Virus record (IMG/VR): IMGVR_UViG_3300044970_000300
Coordinates: 1-59,938 of that record
DNA length: 59,938 bases
Reading direction: 5' to 3' (one strand)
From: a virus
Taxonomy: Duplodnaviria > Caudoviricetes
The notes under the pieces are model-generated. The model made no database searches, was not told the DNA's origin, and saw nothing but the letters and a program-made list of their open reading frames with translations. The translations under genes and the position numbers were made by a program. This document shows, piece by piece, positions 12,177 through 54,042 of this stretch. Every line of letters begins with the position of its first letter. Within the stretch, counting starts at the first letter, position 1.

Positions 12177-12518
12177 ATGAAAGCTAGAAAATACGCCGAA
12201 GGAGGCAAGACCCCACCCAAGAGTGTTGAGGCTGAAGTTAAGGCTCAGCGCAGAAAAGAGATGTACGAGAAGGAGCAAGCCGCGACTAAGGAAGCCAACA
12301 AGGTAGCCGTAGCTCAGGGAGGTAAGCCAACTATGCGTGCTAAGAGTGGTCAAGCCACGGAAGAATTCCGCCAGAAGGCAAAGATTGCAGCTAACCTAAA
12401 GATGGCTAAGCAGGAGGCAATCGGTGGTATGGGCAAGACCCAACTGCCAGCGTCAACCGAGGAGTACCACGGTAAGTACGCGGCCATCAAGCCTAAAGCG
12501 ATTAAGAAAGTAATCTAA
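12177..12518 (+). CDS. basic Lys/Ala-rich protein
   Basis: Own promoter TATATTTG at 12152-12159; begins MKARKYAEGG. Confidence 0.65.
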   Translation: MKARKYAEGGKTPPKSVEAEVKAQRRKEMYEKEQAATKEANKVAVAQGGKPTMRAKSGQATEEFRQKAKIAANLKMAKQEAIGGMGKTQLPASTEEYHGKYAAIKPKAIKKVI

Positions 12519-12552
12519 AAGAGGAGGGGGCCTAAGCCCCCTTCTTTTTTTC
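12517..12552. terminator. bidirectional terminator
   Basis: AAAA-GAGGAGGGGGC-CTAA-GCCCCCTTC-T tract between convergent genes. Confidence 0.75.
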
Positions 12553-12855
12553 CCCTACGTAGTGTGAGTACTTGAAGACGTATGGGTTACCACCAGTCTT
12601 CGTGTCAATCACGGTGATGACCTTCACTCCGTCGATGATTCGCGTCTCTGCGATTAGGTTGTGCTTCTTGAAGCGCTTAAGCTCCACAACTTCAAAGCCG
12701 CAGATTTTAGAGTACATCTCGTCGCTGTTCTCTGTAAACACGACAAGGTTCTCACTCAACCGCTCGAACTTAGCGTCGGCGAACTGAGCGGGGATACGCT
12801 GTCCAAGGAGTGATGTGCTTAGCACAAGTAGGGTGGAAATCAATGCAGTCTTCAT
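12532..12855 (-). CDS. secreted protein on the opposite strand within the late region
   Basis: MKTALISTLLVLSTSLLG signal peptide; own TTTGCA...TATATTTG promoter (-7 at 12878-12885). Confidence 0.65.
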   Translation of the reverse strand: MKTALISTLLVLSTSLLGQRIPAQFADAKFERLSENLVVFTENSDEMYSKICGFEVVELKRFKKHNLIAETRIIDGVKVITVIDTKTGGNPYVFKYSHYVGEKKKGA

Positions 12856-16417: not shown

Positions 16418-16439
16418 TAACCTAACTGCTTGATAGTAT

Positions 16440-16466
16440 GGGGGCTACGAGAGTGGCCCCTTTTTT
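16440..16466 (+). terminator. intrinsic terminator
   Basis: GGGGCTAC-GAGA-GTGGCCCC plus T6; followed by promoter TATATTTG at 16472-16479. Confidence 0.75.
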
Positions 16467-33409: not shown

Positions 33410-33446
33410 AGTGCTACAAAGATACGAAACGTAGTCCAATAAATAG

Positions 33447-33518
33447 TACCCCCAACAGGAATCGAACCTGTAACTAAACTTTAGAAGAGTCTCGTTATAT
33501 CCTTTTAACTATGGGGGC
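33447..33518 (-). tRNA. tRNA-Arg (anticodon UCU)
   Basis: Cloverleaf: acceptor GCCCCCA/TGGGGGT, D arm GTTA/TAAC, anticodon arm AGACT-CTTCTAA-AGTTT, T arm ACAGG-TTCGATT-CCTGT; CCA not encoded. Confidence 0.93.
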
Positions 33519-47871: not shown

Positions 47872-48654
47872 CTACCATATTCCGTCCTCGTCCAACGTGT
47901 CGCGTAGGTATTCGCTACGCAGTTCGTGCTTGCTTGCATTCCATTTGTACGACGGCTCGTCATCGAAGTCATCGAGGAAGTCCGTGTACTTAGGTGCCTT
48001 AGGGATAGCAACCTTGCGCTCGCTGTCCCAAATGGTAGGCTGAGTCACGGCGTTGGCGTATGAGCCTGTCTTGTACACCTTCTTGCTACCTGCCCATACG
48101 TAGTCGTTTACACGCTTGTACGAGTCGTTGCTGAACCAATTTCCGTCGACATCGTAGTGACCTAGTTGGTCGTTGAGGATACGTACCTCACCGCGCCAAT
48201 CAAGGAACGCTACTTTGTTGTGGGAACCGATGATTGTCAGAGCCATAGCACGGATGCCCGCGTGGTCGAGGAAGTCGACGTTGTCAGGGTAGAACTTGCC
48301 TAGCATCTGAGCGAACTCACGAGTGTCGCTGACCTTGTGGTCACCTAGACCCGAGATGACTCCGTTGTGAATCAGTGATACACGACCCTCGGTCACGCTG
48401 TGCGGATGGAGCATATCCTTGCCCTTGCCGTGCGTTGCGATGCGGAAGTGAATCAAGATGGGAGTGTCGGTGAGTTCACGTATGAACTCGTACTCCTCAA
48501 AGAAGTCATCGAAGTTGTAGCCCTCGTGGTAGGTCATCACCTTGCCGTTGTCGACGTAGGCGATGCCTGCTCCGTGGTTGTTATTATCCCAAGCATTCTT
48601 GAGTTGTTTCTTGGTGAGAAAAGAGTTCGGTTGATTTACGATTGCGATACACAT
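47872..48654 (-). CDS. class II (Ntn) glutamine amidotransferase
   Basis: N-terminal MC, N.HGAG, HFRIATHG, HP, HNGVI and SDT motifs. Confidence 0.88.
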   Translation of the reverse strand: MCIAIVNQPNSFLTKKQLKNAWDNNNHGAGIAYVDNGKVMTYHEGYNFDDFFEEYEFIRELTDTPILIHFRIATHGKGKDMLHPHSVTEGRVSLIHNGVISGLGDHKVSDTREFAQMLGKFYPDNVDFLDHAGIRAMALTIIGSHNKVAFLDWRGEVRILNDQLGHYDVDGNWFSNDSYKRVNDYVWAGSKKVYKTGSYANAVTQPTIWDSERKVAIPKAPKYTDFLDDFDDEPSYKWNASKHELRSEYLRDTLDEDGIW

Positions 48655-49644: not shown

Positions 49645-49694
49645 GGTTAAGACGCCTCACGGCGTTTCGTCTACTAAAGCCTCGTCAGTTAACC
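49645..49694 (-). ncRNA. type I hammerhead ribozyme 1
   Basis: GGUUAA CUGACGA GGCU-UUAGU-AGAC GAAA CGCC-GUGA-GGCG UC^UUAACC; one mismatch in stem II. Confidence 0.85.
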
Positions 49695-49971: not shown

Positions 49972-51480
49972 TTACGCTTGGCCGATAGCCTTGCGGATAG
50001 TGTGTGAACCGAACTTCGACTCTACCGCACGGCTAGTGAAGTTCTGAACGCTAGCGTAGGCACGCTTCATTCGCTCCAAGGTGCGGTCGTAGTTGTCGCT
50101 GTTGGCTAGGAACTCGGTAGGTGACTGACCTTCCAAGCATCCACCGAATACGTAAACCAAGGCTTGCTTGCGTGCAAGTTTTTCGGCGCTGTATTGTGAG
50201 CGGAGTAACTTGTTCAGTTTTTTGTCGCTGAACATTGCATCTGCAACCTCGGTGAACTTAGTGTACGTTCCGTTGTCGATTTGCTTTACAATCCACTGCA
50301 CTAGTTTAGTGCGGAACTTGATTGACTCGAGCGTTGATACCGCGCTGAAGATGCGAAGTTCAACCGCGTCCTTCGGTAGTGTGCCGAAGTTGCAGTTGTA
50401 GATTGCCCTGCGGCTACCGCGCTTCATCTCGTCCTTGTTTTGGATGCCGCCGTAATCGGTGCTGAGGCGGCCTTCGTACAGGCTGAAAAGTAGCGGGATA
50501 AACGGAGCCAACTTGTCAATCAGGTCAACTGCGGTTACACCTCGACGGCTGATTGTGATGTGCCCACCACAGCGACGTGAGTAACCCGAATTCATAACCC
50601 AATCGAGTCGGTCGAACTCGTCGAACATCGTCTTCGTGTCGAGTAGGTTAAATACAGGAGACACAGCCTCGAAACCTGTGCGGCTGTCGAGCGATGAGTC
50701 ACGCTCAACAATCCATCCGTTGCCTAGGTTTGAACTAGCCCAAGCACAGCGGTTGCGTGCCTCGCGGTCTTCTTTCTCAACCTCGAAGCCTACGAACCAA
50801 TCAACACTTGCGTCGTTTAGGACGCTTTTGCTGCGTGACGTAAGGTGGTAACCTCCCAACGATGGTGCGTCTCCGTAACGACGGCCGACTTCGGCGTTCT
50901 CGAAGATTGCCGTGCGTCCCTCCCACTCACCAACAACCAAGTCGTTGTCGCTACGACGGATTTGGCTTAGGTACTCGTGGCGGTATTGGTCGTGCAGTCG
51001 AATCTCCTGAGAGGCGAAGTTTGCACCGAACAGCGGGTACTCGGATGTGCGGTAATCGGTGAACGCACACAGGTCGGTGGTGTATAATTGGCCGTCGATA
51101 ACAACGCAAACGAAGTTGGTTGGGTATTCGGTCATAGGCACAGCCTCGAACGTAGCGTCGCTGAGTTCAAGGTGCGGGAAGCCCTCGAGTCGGAGCGGGT
51201 TACGCTGTCCGCTAGTGTGGCGGTAGTAGATGTTTGCCTCAGTGCGGAGCGCACCGATGGTGATAAACATTGACTCGTGACAGCGCATATTGACATCAAT
51301 TCCGTACGCTGCTGCGTCGAGCGCCATAGGGAACAAGGTTTGCTTGGTGGTTCCGTCGCTAGCGATGTACCTGTAGCGGAAATAATCGTTGTTGACTCCG
51401 AAGTAGAAGTCGAACTGAGCGTTGTGGTATGCTCGGTGAAGTTCAATCTTGCGGCCTGATACGATGTTGGTGACTTTCAT
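49972..51480 (-). CDS. putative COOH-NH2 amidoligase (Amidoligase_2-like C-terminal domain)
   Basis: GFEVE, DSSL...GFE.VSP, CGGHI and VELR motifs. Confidence 0.75.
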   Translation of the reverse strand: MKVTNIVSGRKIELHRAYHNAQFDFYFGVNNDYFRYRYIASDGTTKQTLFPMALDAAAYGIDVNMRCHESMFITIGALRTEANIYYRHTSGQRNPLRLEGFPHLELSDATFEAVPMTEYPTNFVCVVIDGQLYTTDLCAFTDYRTSEYPLFGANFASQEIRLHDQYRHEYLSQIRRSDNDLVVGEWEGRTAIFENAEVGRRYGDAPSLGGYHLTSRSKSVLNDASVDWFVGFEVEKEDREARNRCAWASSNLGNGWIVERDSSLDSRTGFEAVSPVFNLLDTKTMFDEFDRLDWVMNSGYSRRCGGHITISRRGVTAVDLIDKLAPFIPLLFSLYEGRLSTDYGGIQNKDEMKRGSRRAIYNCNFGTLPKDAVELRIFSAVSTLESIKFRTKLVQWIVKQIDNGTYTKFTEVADAMFSDKKLNKLLRSQYSAEKLARKQALVYVFGGCLEGQSPTEFLANSDNYDRTLERMKRAYASVQNFTSRAVESKFGSHTIRKAIGQA

Positions 51481-51506
51481 AACTGAAAAGAATTAAGTTT
51501 TGTAAT

Positions 51507-51560
51507 GGTTAAGACGAGGACGAATCCTCGTTTCGGCTACTAAAGCCTCGTCAGTTAACC
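51507..51560 (-). ncRNA. type I hammerhead ribozyme 2
   Basis: GGUUAA CUGACGA GGCU-UUAGU-AGCC GAAA CGAGGA-UUCG-UCCUCG UC^UUAACC; all three stems perfect. Confidence 0.92.
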
Positions 51561-51565
51561 TTTAT

Positions 51566-51664
51566 TTATTCGAGGTTGCTTTCATACTTGTAGATGCGAT
51601 AGTAGACATACGCTACAACTGCGGCTCCTATAAGCATCTGAATGAGTTCGAAAAAACTTTCCAT
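51566..51664 (-). CDS. small single-TM peptide (32 aa)
   Basis: MESFFELIQMLIGAAVVAYVYYRIYKYESNLE; A-rich leader. Confidence 0.55.
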   Translation of the reverse strand: MESFFELIQMLIGAAVVAYVYYRIYKYESNLE

Positions 51665-51694
51665 AATTGTTGTGGTTTTAAGTGGTTGAATTTT

Positions 51695-52348
51695 GACTGC
51701 CGTAGGGACTCGAACCCTATGCCTTGCGGCACTCCAAGCGGCAGTTATTGCCTTGAACAGGCGAACCTTTTTGGCGGCGTTGTTGCTCGCAACATCTACC
51801 GCATACGCTGTTAGTTCCTCCACGACTGCTATCCTTTGGCGGCGCTTTTTACGCACCGCATACGCTGTCTTTCGCTGTCGTTTGTTCTCGGCTTGTTTTG
51901 ACTTGATTTGCTTGGGTGTTCTTGCGGTGTTCATTGGCCTCCCCCCAACCGCCTGAAACCTTTGCGCCACGGCGCTTCGTTTTCGTTTGTCTGAGGCTTG
52001 ATTTCTTACGGCCGCCATACTTGGCCTTGCTCGTCTCGTCTACCTGCCCTCGTTACTTTCGGTCGGATTGTGCTAGCCTACTTACGCTACTCACTTGGAT
52101 TACATCACCTACTCAATCAGACCTGACCTGCTACTCCGCTCCCTAACGCCCGACAGCCTGTAGGCCGTGGCCTACTGACTGAATCGTACAGGGTTCACAA
52201 GGTGGGTTTCCGATTTTTGGGAGGCGCTTTCGCTAACATCTCTCCGCCTATCGTCACTATGGGACTTTATTTAGAAACACCTCGTATTCGACCTAGCGGC
52301 CGCCGCGTTTTGTGTTTCAGAATTTTAAAGAGCGTTTGTCTTTCGACT
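51695..52348 (-). ncRNA. large structured early leader/ncRNA
   Basis: No credible ORF; many helices and GNRA loops; starts after a complete promoter. Confidence 0.5.
51696..51745 (-). ncRNA. mini tRNA-like structure
   Basis: 7-bp acceptor-like stem, canonical T arm TAGGG-TTCGAGT-CCCTA, GCAA hairpin in place of the anticodon arm. Confidence 0.65.
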
Positions 52349-52351
52349 CCA

Positions 52352-52382
52352 CAAACATACGACGACTTTGCACATCTGCAAA
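52352..52382 (-). promoter_or_regulatory. early promoter TTTGCA-N17-TATGTTTG
   Basis: Bacteroidota -33/-7 consensus at the head of the minus-strand early region. Confidence 0.75.
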
Positions 52383-52437
52383 CTCCGACCACAAAAAAAG
52401 TTAGGACTCCCGCTCGCCTATAAGGAATATATAGGGC

Positions 52438-52690
52438 TAACTGCTTGATAATCAGCACACAAAAAAAAGTTTACTAGGGGGTGAAATTTAGAATCGTTCT
52501 AAATAAAAGTGACTGAAAATCAACAACTTAGTAATCCATTGAAAATCAGATAGTTACTAACTGCCTAAAACTCAGCAAGTTACAACGTACTGAAACACAG
52601 CGAGTTAACGTAACTACCTGATAATCAGCGACATTTAAGAAATCATATGCACAGGATTACGACCCGAACCGCTTGACAACCAACGACTTA
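52438..52690. repeat. array of IHF-box-like degenerate repeats
   Basis: WATCARnnnnTTA-like units, four of them spaced 26, 26 and 25 bp apart. Confidence 0.6.
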
Positions 52691-53330
52691 ACTAGCCAAC
52701 GTATGTACAGAATACGGCGATAAGCATACTTTTTTCGTTTAATAAAACACCCGTACAGAATCCGTGCGTTTATACCACACAAACAAGCACACGACCTGTC
52801 TACTATAGTATACAAAAAAGAATATACAATTATGCGTGCCTAGCGTACTCAGTTCGGTGAAGTATTAACGTGGTAAATAGTGGGAGAAAATGGTAGGGGG
52901 ATTGATGCAGGTCTACGGCCAAGTCCCCCCACGAAAAAAAACATACGTTCGGTGACACGTTTTCCCTACTTTTTCTACAGCGAACAGGCCGAAACGATTA
53001 AGGTAGACGGGCTAATAGTGACACAAAGTAGGCACACCACTCACCCACCCACCCCAACAGCAAAACGCTAAAATGTTTGAACGTAACGTGTTGATAACGA
53101 GGGGGTTGGGTTCGGGATTCCGTTTCGGGGTCGGGGGCGCAGCGTCGTTCTTGTATAATTCTCCCCAGGGTATACATAACTCGTCCCCAAATCAAGACGA
53201 TGTTGACCTGATATGAAACAAAAACACCGTGAAGTCTACCTAGACGGTTAATACAAGCGGTTAAATAGTAGGGAAATCGGGGATACGCAACCGTTTGAGC
53301 CTAAGCACACGCATCCTGTATTCAAGTCTT

Positions 53331-53467
53331 TGTAGTAGCTGTCGCTCTATTCTTTGTCAGTTGCGGACGGGCGTTTGGGACTGTCCTCCACTGCCAATCG
53401 TTCCGTAGTTCCGTCTCTAGGACGATTACGTCCGCTATAGCACGTCGTCTTGTGCCTTGCACTACAG
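53331..53467 (-). ncRNA. candidate small structured RNA with its own promoter
   Basis: TAACTTTG at 53471-53478 followed by nested helices. Confidence 0.45.
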
Positions 53468-53580
53468 GAGCAAAGTTACAAAAAAAAAACGAGATAATCA
53501 ATAGTGTGTTATGCATAGTACCGCCCTTCGGATACGGAATGGTATATCATAGTATCTTTGTGACTATAACACAGATAGTT

Positions 53581-54042
53581 ATGCAACTGACAGAGAACTT
53601 TACGTTAAAGGAGCTCACGGATAGCCCAACGGCTGACAAGCTCGGTATTAAGAACGAACCAGACGAGAAGCAGCTAGCCGCGCTTAAGCTCCTCGCAGAG
53701 AAGGTGCTACAGCCCCTGCGTGAGGGTATCGGTAAGCCGATTAAGATTAACTCAGGACTCAGAGGCACAGCCCTGAATAAGGCCATCGGTGGGTCATCCA
53801 CGTCGCAGCACTGCAAGGGTGAGGCGGCCGACCTTAGCCTCAAGTCAGTGAAGAACGGGAACGCCTTGTTGTTCCACTACATCAGAGAGAACCTCGTGTT
53901 CGACCAGATGATTTGGGAGTTCGGTACCAAGGAGAATCCTGACTGGGTACACGTGAGCTACTCCGCCAAGGGTAACCGAAAGGAGATTCTAGAGGCGTAC
54001 AAGCATCACGGGAAGACGGCATATAGAGCCTGGAAGCCGTGA
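53581..54042 (+). CDS. peptidase M15 family endolysin
   Basis: INSG.R, SQH..GEAAD and WVHVS motifs; start MQLTENF after TATCTTTG at 53553-53560. Confidence 0.88.
   Translation: MQLTENFTLKELTDSPTADKLGIKNEPDEKQLAALKLLAEKVLQPLREGIGKPIKINSGLRGTALNKAIGGSSTSQHCKGEAADLSLKSVKNGNALLFHYIRENLVFDQMIWEFGTKENPDWVHVSYSAKGNRKEILEAYKHHGKTAYRAWKP

Follow-up and report, generated by a model that had tools for sequence, protein, structure and literature searches.

A non-decoding tRNA mimic follows a large structured RNA in a freshwater phage genome and probably marks where its early transcript is cut

The vertebrate nuclear long non-coding RNAs MALAT1 and MEN-beta carry small transfer RNA (tRNA)-like elements, mascRNA and menRNA, at their 3' ends, and the 3' end of the long RNA is made by a cut on the 5' side of the mimic. 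Maturation of mascRNA proceeds through an RNase Z cut and addition of CCA, yielding a stable small RNA. In mitochondria, tRNAs located between genes act as punctuation, and together with the tRNA-like stem-loops of plant mitochondria (t-elements) they provide cleavage sites for RNase P and RNase Z. The tRNA-like domain of transfer-messenger RNA (tmRNA) and the bacterial Y RNAs (YrlA) similarly mimic the acceptor and T arms without decoding. Among phages, the large RNAs GOLLD and ROOL (~600-800 nucleotides, nt) covary heavily and adjoin tRNA-type elements, and two reports suggest that they are co-transcribed with tRNAs (10.1101/2024.12.08.627333; PMC5737381). Small RNA-processing elements are also found beside tRNA-type elements in the form of theta (hepatitis delta virus-like) ribozymes, which are reported to trim a working suppressor tRNA (PMC10879173). 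Here, we describe a 50-nt anticodon-less mini-tRNA on the minus strand (51696..51745) of the virus record IMGVR_UViG_3300044970_000300, a 98%-complete genome of 59,938 bases that was analysed over its whole length (the window). The element lies directly 3' of a large structured RNA that an earlier note on this DNA had overlooked and that alters what the mimic is for. The mimic is probably a punctuation signal for RNase P and RNase Z, making the 3' end of the large RNA and freeing the messenger RNA (mRNA) downstream.

Read 5' to 3' on the minus strand, the mimic begins with the 5' strand of a 7-base-pair (bp) acceptor stem (ACUGCCG; 51745-51739), followed by a 7-nt, GG-containing D-like loop that lacks a stem (CUUGGAG; 51738-51732), a short hairpin (UGCC-GCAA-GGCA; 51731-51720), a T arm with a 5-bp stem and tRNA-type loop (UAGGG-UUCGAGU-CCCUA; 51719-51703) and the 3' strand of the acceptor stem (CGGCAGU; 51702-51696). 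A discriminator C (51695) and AAA come next. Sequence and fold bear out exactly the architecture that the earlier note had described. As in a tRNA, the 7-bp acceptor stem stacks on the 5-bp T stem and the T loop is of the UUCRANY type. The arm in the place of the anticodon arm has 4-5 bp and a loop of 3-4 nt, without the 7-nt anticodon loop of a cloverleaf; its GNRA loop, to which the earlier note had drawn attention, occurs in just two of seven variants and is not a defining feature. The mimic encodes no CCA and has U3-A70 in place of G3-U70, with CAAA as its trailer. RNase P is predicted to cut between 51746 and 51745, and RNase Z after 51695.

As had been anticipated, standard detectors do not call this element. 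ARAGORN is silent at the mimic, its sole call in the window being a tRNA-Arg(UCU) at 33446-33518, and it reports no tmRNA there; at gathering thresholds, Rfam also finds the tRNA-Arg alone. The Rfam tRNA model (RF00005) gives the mimic 15.2 bits against a cut-off of 29. The only Rfam model to align with it end to end in scans at E-value thresholds is mascRNA-menRNA (RF01684), so that the analogues first proposed were aptly chosen, though its score of 30.9 bits lies below the gathering threshold of 42.5; over the whole window its E-value is 0.026, and just one RNA match there scores higher. At minimum energy, the mimic folds into the tRNA-like Y shape (-21.5 kcal/mol, z -2.05); 9 of 200 shuffles fold as well, and the folding energy of the mimic taken alone is only modest evidence. 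More discriminating was a descriptor comprising a TTCRANY T loop and a 5-bp T stem abutting a 7-bp acceptor stem within 45-95 nt in total. With Watson-Crick pairs only, it matched the window once, at the mimic, and never in 300 dinucleotide-shuffled windows; with G-U pairs allowed, it matched the mimic and the true tRNA-Arg in the window and gave 11 matches over the 300 shuffles. The mimic is real and not a chance hairpin.

The likeness to mascRNA and menRNA extends from the parts of the element (acceptor stem, T arm and a short stem in the place of the anticodon arm) to its position at the 3' end of a long non-coding RNA, the contigs of which end just upstream, as RNase P cleavage would leave them. 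It differs in belonging to a phage of bacteria rather than the vertebrate nucleus, in lacking any D stem, in having no recognised triple-helix element upstream and in being followed by protein genes on the same transcript. With a sub-threshold score, a different domain of life and a distant variant that the model does not match, the phage mimic is an analogue and not a homologue of mascRNA, and is not a member of RF01684. Mitochondrial punctuation signals likewise define the ends of neighbouring RNAs, but they are mostly working tRNAs, whereas the phage has a dedicated non-decoding 50-mer between a large non-coding RNA and an mRNA. The two acceptor strands of tmRNA lie at opposite ends of a 360-nt molecule that has G3-U70 and CCA; those of the mimic are 36 nt apart, with U3-A70 and no CCA, and neither ARAGORN nor Rfam matches it to tmRNA. 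The large RNA upstream resembles GOLLD and ROOL in size, covariation and phage origin, but it has no Rfam match, its neighbour is a mimic and not a tRNA, and its family is narrow (23 contigs). In contrast to the theta ribozyme system, host tRNA enzymes would here trim something that is not a tRNA, with putative hammerhead ribozymes at other junctions. No description of a dedicated anticodon-less mimic ending a large phage RNA was found in a literature search whose scope excluded supplements and subscription journals.

Conservation of the mimic was assessed in a set of 23 related contigs, which comprises the window, 13 viral contigs found through the exact 24-base 3' half of the mimic, a truncated viral contig (L026) and four further metagenome contigs found through a pattern from the upstream region, and four distant contigs found by a protein-profile search with the neighbouring gene and one pattern scan. 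The distant subfamily is represented by the loci L092/L093 (on the same contigs as L096/L095) and L094/L097. In all 22 records that reach the position (the window, 13 viral, four metagenome and four distant; L026 ends earlier), the mimic lies directly 3' of the large RNA, with an intervening linker of 4-5 nt that lengthens to 18 nt in the distant subfamily. Searched with a covariance model of the mimic, the window and five out of five related virus records each yielded exactly one copy. Across 12 distinct close relatives, the acceptor, T arm and GG loop are invariant, compared with an average column identity of 83% in the remainder of the large RNA; invariance within the close family by itself says nothing about pairing. 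The hairpin stem covaries even here, occurring in three forms (UGCC/GGCA, UGCAC/GUGCA and UGCGC/GCGCA) with differing loops.

Pairing is tested more severely in the distant subfamily, where L093 (2417-2471) and L094 carry a 55-56-base version of the mimic that keeps its architecture. Of the 12 acceptor and T-stem pairs, five have exchanged both partners without losing the pairing (1:72 and 6:67 in the acceptor, and three of five in the T stem). With this subfamily added, 97.8% of cells in all 15 modelled mimic pairs form pairs, with five double changes against 0-1 in controls with slid partners, and none of 500 shuffles does as well. The loss of the stems and T loop in relatives, named at the outset as what would speak against the mimic, was thus looked for, and both are conserved, with compensatory changes in the distant subfamily. 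The distant variants retain the T-loop letters UUCGA-U, GG and a hairpin, though not the sequence or loop of that hairpin. Acceptor and T stem together always make up 12 bp, divided as 7+5 in the main family and, in L093, equally well as 6+6. Immediately 5' of the acceptor stands A, U or C but in no case G, so that the stem cannot extend against the discriminator C. The element therefore presents what an RNase P substrate offers, namely a 12-bp acceptor/T stack behind a single-stranded 5' leader unable to lengthen the stem.

The RNA upstream of the mimic is recognised by conservation, covariation and RNA contigs. Its body spans 51746..52338 (minus strand; ~590 nt by the limits of the RNA contigs), and conserved non-coding sequence continues upstream to ~52420, giving ~590-700 bases in all. 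Identity to the window is 74.5-95% among 12 distinct close sequences, and their alignment contains frame-breaking indels and no conserved open frame. A structure model of the close family contains 144 pairs, of which 129 lie in the RNA and its upstream flank and 15 in the mimic, whose stems were added to the predicted structure. In this model, 98.0% of cells form standard pairs (33-42% with partners slid) and 24 pairs are changed on both sides (2-6 in slid controls); none of 500 shuffles reaches these values, except on the measure of further pair types, where the shuffles score higher. When the distant subfamily is added, 120 pairs are left, 93.9% of cells pair and 42 pairs are double-changed, compared with 7-16 in slid controls. 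Many invariant G-U pairs fit the minus strand alone, which identifies that strand as the RNA.

Metatranscriptomes provide evidence at the RNA level. At least half the sequence words of a 1.2-kilobase (kb) stretch across the locus are carried by 14 lake or freshwater DNA runs, and the whole stretch is present in DNA runs, while six riverine metatranscriptome runs each carry about a third of the words. Contig coverage was examined in four of these six. Run X15 covers 51752-52307 at a depth of 25.5, with a sequencing adapter joined directly at 51752; X18 covers 51748-51846 and 51856-52334 at depths of 13.7 and 23.7, with short pieces between 51795 and 51876; X20 covers 51777-52338 at a depth of 6.6; and X16 covers 51882-52338 at a depth of 7.3, with an adapter at 52338. 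The main cover is thus confined to 51748..52338 in all four runs; the cover upstream is limited to thin pieces (depth 3-4) at 52319-52600, and no RNA contig lies on 51450-51747, which holds the mimic, a small open reading frame (ORF) and a putative hammerhead; these uncovered parts (51450-51747 and most of 52340-52650) prove nothing by themselves. Since contaminating DNA would cover the flanks too, the contigs point to a discrete RNA of ~590 bases that is far more abundant than its neighbours. In two runs (51748 and 51752), the nearest contig stops 3-7 bases short of the start of the mimic; the mimic does not vary among close relatives and would have aligned had it been present in the contigs.

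The sequence that follows the mimic is also suggestive of a processing junction. Its trailer, which forms the leader of the next gene (51665..51695, minus strand; conserved motif UUCAACC), is G-poor and has no Shine-Dalgarno-like run, and no terminator-like site was found on the minus strand between the large RNA and the genes. CAAA follows the acceptor immediately in 18 of 18 main-family records, a YYAACC-type motif lies 6-15 nt downstream of the mimic in all lineages seen, and the next start codon comes 30-50 bases after it. The first conserved protein gene after the mimic (49972..51480, minus strand) encodes a 502-amino acid (aa) protein, homologues of which follow the mimic in all relatives checked; in L013, L014, L016 and L021 the gene comes directly after it. 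In three lineages, a small ORF (32, 65 or 69 aa) is inserted between the two, and each time a putative hammerhead ribozyme follows the ORF. In the window, the inserted ORF encodes a hydrophobic peptide of 32 aa (51566..51664, minus strand) that is absent from this place in most relatives, and the hammerhead (51507..51560, minus strand) has an open stem I, a core of CUGACGA...GAAA...GUC and three stems. The family comprises five distinct variants in which stems II and III covary; Rfam scores of 22.3 and 15.9 bits are far below the cut-offs, and the whole-window scan gave no hammerhead match at E-values up to 5. The predicted self-cleavage site, between 51513 and 51512, is 32 nt 5' of the 502-aa-protein gene's start codon, and a cut there would restore a short leader starting UUAACC, like the UUYAAYC (CCAACC in the distant subfamily) found after the mimic elsewhere. 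Wherever a cassette of this kind separates mimic from gene, a hammerhead thus precedes the 502-aa-protein gene, so that a cut upstream of the leader would be kept by other means, and the occurrence of a presumably host-dependent mimic and a putatively self-cleaving hammerhead at equivalent places fits a need for a cut there.

A course of events can be proposed on this basis. Transcription of the leftward early block would start in the divergent intergenic region and run through the ~590-nt structured RNA, the 50-nt tRNA mimic and the protein genes, in that order, without a terminator between them. The mimic would present the features that RNase P gauges, namely the 12-bp acceptor/T-arm stack, the tRNA-type T loop and a GG loop that may form an elbow. 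A cut at 51746/51745 would leave the large RNA with a 3' end a few bases past its closing helix, and a second cut, by RNase Z or a comparable enzyme, would fall 3' of the discriminator C (51695), releasing an unstructured, G-poor mRNA leader. The excised 50-mer could be either a by-product or an independent small RNA. The mimic and the phage tRNA-Arg both lack an encoded CCA, which suggests that they share a maturation route, presumably through RNase P, RNase Z and CCA addition. The structure of the mimic, the selection on it, its position, its single copy per genome and the RNA contigs that cover the large RNA and stop before the mimic are all observed; we infer from them which enzymes cut, at which sites, and what becomes of the 50-mer. 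The processing role suggested in the earlier note therefore stands in part, with the boundary position, the stop of the RNA contigs and the hammerhead in the equivalent place in its favour.

Several points weigh against this interpretation. The fold energies are unremarkable (z -2.05 in the window and -0.46 for the L093 variant), a rod is an equally good fold for variants that have C in the D-like loop, the mascRNA score is sub-threshold and the distant variant L095 matches neither the mascRNA nor the tRNA model at E-values up to 10. The mimic has no 3' CCA (RCCA tail), and bacterial RNase P RNA favours a 3' CCA. The global RNAalifold fold of the close family omits the acceptor stem, the 3' strand of which it pairs with GCCGUA, an invariant sequence 300 nt upstream; the distant subfamily has lost that long-range pairing but retains the acceptor stem. 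The true ends of an RNA cannot be read from contigs, whose stops (scattered at 51748, 51752, 51777 and 51882) are a weak hint with approximate positions. Random-primed libraries lose 3' ends, a highly structured 50-nt RNA would be missed by such libraries whether cut off or not, and the four runs may stem from one sampling campaign. The host is uncultured.

Other roles for the mimic are less probable. The excised 50-mer might be the product itself, a stable trans-acting tRNA mimic that occupies a tRNA-binding enzyme or a defence protein acting on tRNA acceptor ends, with the cut in the large RNA as a side effect. Sequence conservation stricter than pairing requires, namely the invariant acceptor, T arm and GG loop of the 12 close relatives, would be expected of such an RNA, and mascRNA is a stable RNA in its own right; however, the acceptor sequence differs in the distant subfamily, anticodon nucleases would have no target in an RNA without an anticodon loop, no defence or counter-defence gene was seen adjoining the mimic, and no RNA contig of the four runs covers it, although this last point says little for a 50-nt RNA. 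We consider this unlikely, if worth keeping in mind; it is compatible with cutting, and nothing favours a decoy role in particular, so that the decoy for tRNA-targeting defences proposed earlier is unsupported. It is improbable that RNase P cuts 5' of the mimic and leaves it on the downstream mRNA as a structured 5' cap against 5'-end-dependent decay. The absence of a terminator between mimic and genes and the conservation of CAAA and the YYAACC motif would suit a cap, but hammerhead cleavage in cassette-bearing genomes would leave the same gene with a bare leader, and the mimic and leader are uncovered by RNA contigs in the four runs.

To a similar or slightly greater degree, it seems improbable that the mimic stays on the large RNA as its 3' domain and serves as a tRNA-like tail, either receiving CCA or recruiting tRNA-binding factors in the manner of plant-virus tRNA-like structures and tmRNA. 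The mimic covalently adjoins the large RNA in every member, and GOLLD RNAs are reported in a cryo-EM preprint to carry tRNAs sometimes in their linker (10.1101/2024.12.08.627333). Against this, the RNA contigs of two runs stop at 51748-51752, one with an adapter there, where an invariant mimic would have aligned, and the element has neither G3-U70 nor an encoded CCA and is not called as tmRNA by ARAGORN. It is very improbable, in our view, that the element is without a present RNA function, being either a tRNA gene in decay or an attachment site that the phage copied from a tRNA gene of its host. Large phage RNAs are often neighbours of tRNA genes, which makes a tRNA remnant plausible as an origin, but both stems are maintained by compensatory changes between subfamilies that share just 45% identity in the flanking protein, no contig of 185,579 species genomes contains the 24-nt 3' half, no host tRNA gene sharing that half and bordering integrated prophages was found, no tyrosine integrase (PF00589) is present in the 98%-complete genome, and the 5' acceptor strand would be superfluous in an attachment site.

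If the mimic is indeed a punctuation signal for RNase P and RNase Z, it may represent the first case in phages of an arrangement like that of MALAT1 and mascRNA to be backed by evidence from RNA. The fuller picture, in which Flavobacteriia-type freshwater phages possess a new class of ornate ~590-nt RNA, made first and in excess from an early operon, with a 3' end set by a non-decoding mimic through host RNase P and RNase Z, is put forward tentatively. Elements of tRNA shape would on this account be maturation signals, which would supply a general reason for the closeness of GOLLD and ROOL to tRNAs, and the tRNA shape would be the cheapest route for a phage to precise RNA ends, using enzymes that every host must keep. 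The mimic would also be a natural minimal substrate pared down by selection to a stack of 12 bp, the T and GG loops and a short hairpin of any kind, revealing the parts of a tRNA needed for processing and proving useful for RNase P and RNase Z biochemistry and bacterial RNA engineering. The case contributes RNA-level data and covariation across subfamilies, and the large RNA is itself a new, abundant, heavily covarying RNA of ~590 nt without a known family, heading a phage early operon and seen in metatranscriptomes.

The identity of the large RNA was pursued by several routes. Four Rfam scans at E-values up to 10 matched it to no large-RNA family; GOLLD, covered by the all-family scans only, gave no match, and the ROOL model run on its own gave none either, although its control also failed to match. 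The RNA resembles nothing in GenBank phages (DNA) or, by pattern search, in 185,579 species genomes, where both the upstream-region pattern and the 24-mer had no matches, and no relative was reached among GenBank phages through the 502-aa protein. Three pattern scans of viral contigs for a wider family returned, beyond the members and L026, unrelated coding sequences only, and an Rfam scan of 19 of 26 pattern-scan loci returned tRNAs only. Mimicry of ribosomal or other cellular RNA was rejected on an empty blastn search of the large RNA against all E. coli genomes. Three short stretches had seemed to resemble bacterial RNase P RNA, and this identity was also rejected: RF00010 gave no match at E-values up to 10, and alignment to E. 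coli rnpB did not exceed chance, its score being attained by 20 of 300 shuffles (z ~0 with cheap gaps). The stretch resembling the P9 hairpin forms no hairpin in the covariation model and differs in the distant subfamily. Open frames across the region differ from genome to genome, and the 150-aa frame that runs through the mimic (51566..52018) is an accident, with single-base indels, no conservation in relatives and no Pfam or PHROG match.

Within the 3' domain of the large RNA, two copies of ACAGCGUAUGCGGU (51855-51868 and 51798-51811, minus strand) each open a similar hairpin module, and only the second copy is retained in the distant subfamily.

The minus-strand block downstream of the mimic encodes early functions, including an exonuclease, a primase/helicase and ribonucleotide reductase, and the plus strand carries the terminase and structural genes. 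The nearest cultured relatives by terminase are phages of Flavobacterium and Cellulophaga (68 and 15 of 115 records; 39.5% identity among the matches listed). The tRNA-Arg(UCU) (33446-33518, minus strand), which has no encoded CCA, ends the minus-strand block and is convergent with an ORF of 2673 codons. The nearest GenBank relative by terminase, MW202828.1, has no such large RNA. It carries, in the place of the tRNA-Arg at the far end of the gene block, two tandem tRNA-like elements (L104:523-630 and 637-697) with no ARAGORN call and Rfam tRNA scores of 47.3 and 37.2 bits; one has a long insert at the place of the anticodon arm, and the other, of 61 bases, has acceptor, D and T arms and no anticodon arm.

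The 502-aa protein has no Pfam, PHROG or PDB sequence match and appears amidoligase-like by language-model features; in the ESM Atlas, its Pfam-bearing match is a PF12224 cluster at 0.94, and 23 of 30 matches share that family set. Three small ORFs beyond its gene, 1.3 kb downstream, lies a gene for a 260-aa protein with a weak likeness to class-II glutamine amidotransferases (47872-48654, minus strand). Putative hammerheads recur between cistrons of the early block, at 51507-51560 and 49645-49694 (minus strand) in the window, the latter with a G-A mismatch in stem II, and in relatives (L012:3258-3309; L004, L001 and others). Their open stem I is formed by GGUUAA/UUAACC and often contains the stop codon of the upstream ORF. 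Cassettes of small ORF and hammerhead are located at 51566-51664 (minus strand) in the window and at L011:6716-6913, L012:3059-3268 and L001:6041-6127, and a 77% identical copy of the small ORF of the window occurs elsewhere in L001, which suggests that these are mobile mini-cassettes joining at the UUAACC motif. Elsewhere in the window, weak matches to the PrrB/RsmZ small RNAs were recorded at 12436-12550 (plus strand) and 12517-12694 (minus strand), with 28.4 bits (E 0.011) and 23 bits against a cut-off of 44.

Two kinds of motif precede the large RNA. A sigma-70 promoter scan of 51300-53700 returned no sites, and a promoter-like pair conserved in the alignment (52352..52382, minus strand), comprising TTTG (52382-52379) and TATGTTTG (52359-52352) 19 nt apart, is located upstream of the 5' limit of the RNA contigs and may fit the -33/-7 promoter consensus of Bacteroidota. 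Further upstream, the 18-base motif CTGATTATCARGNAGTTA is repeated at 52438-52455, 52558-52575 and 52611-52628 (minus strand) and occurs again at 16423-16440 (minus strand). These four matches at up to three mismatches compare with 0.27 expected, the motif is conserved in relatives including the distant subfamily, and it may be a phage promoter or operator.

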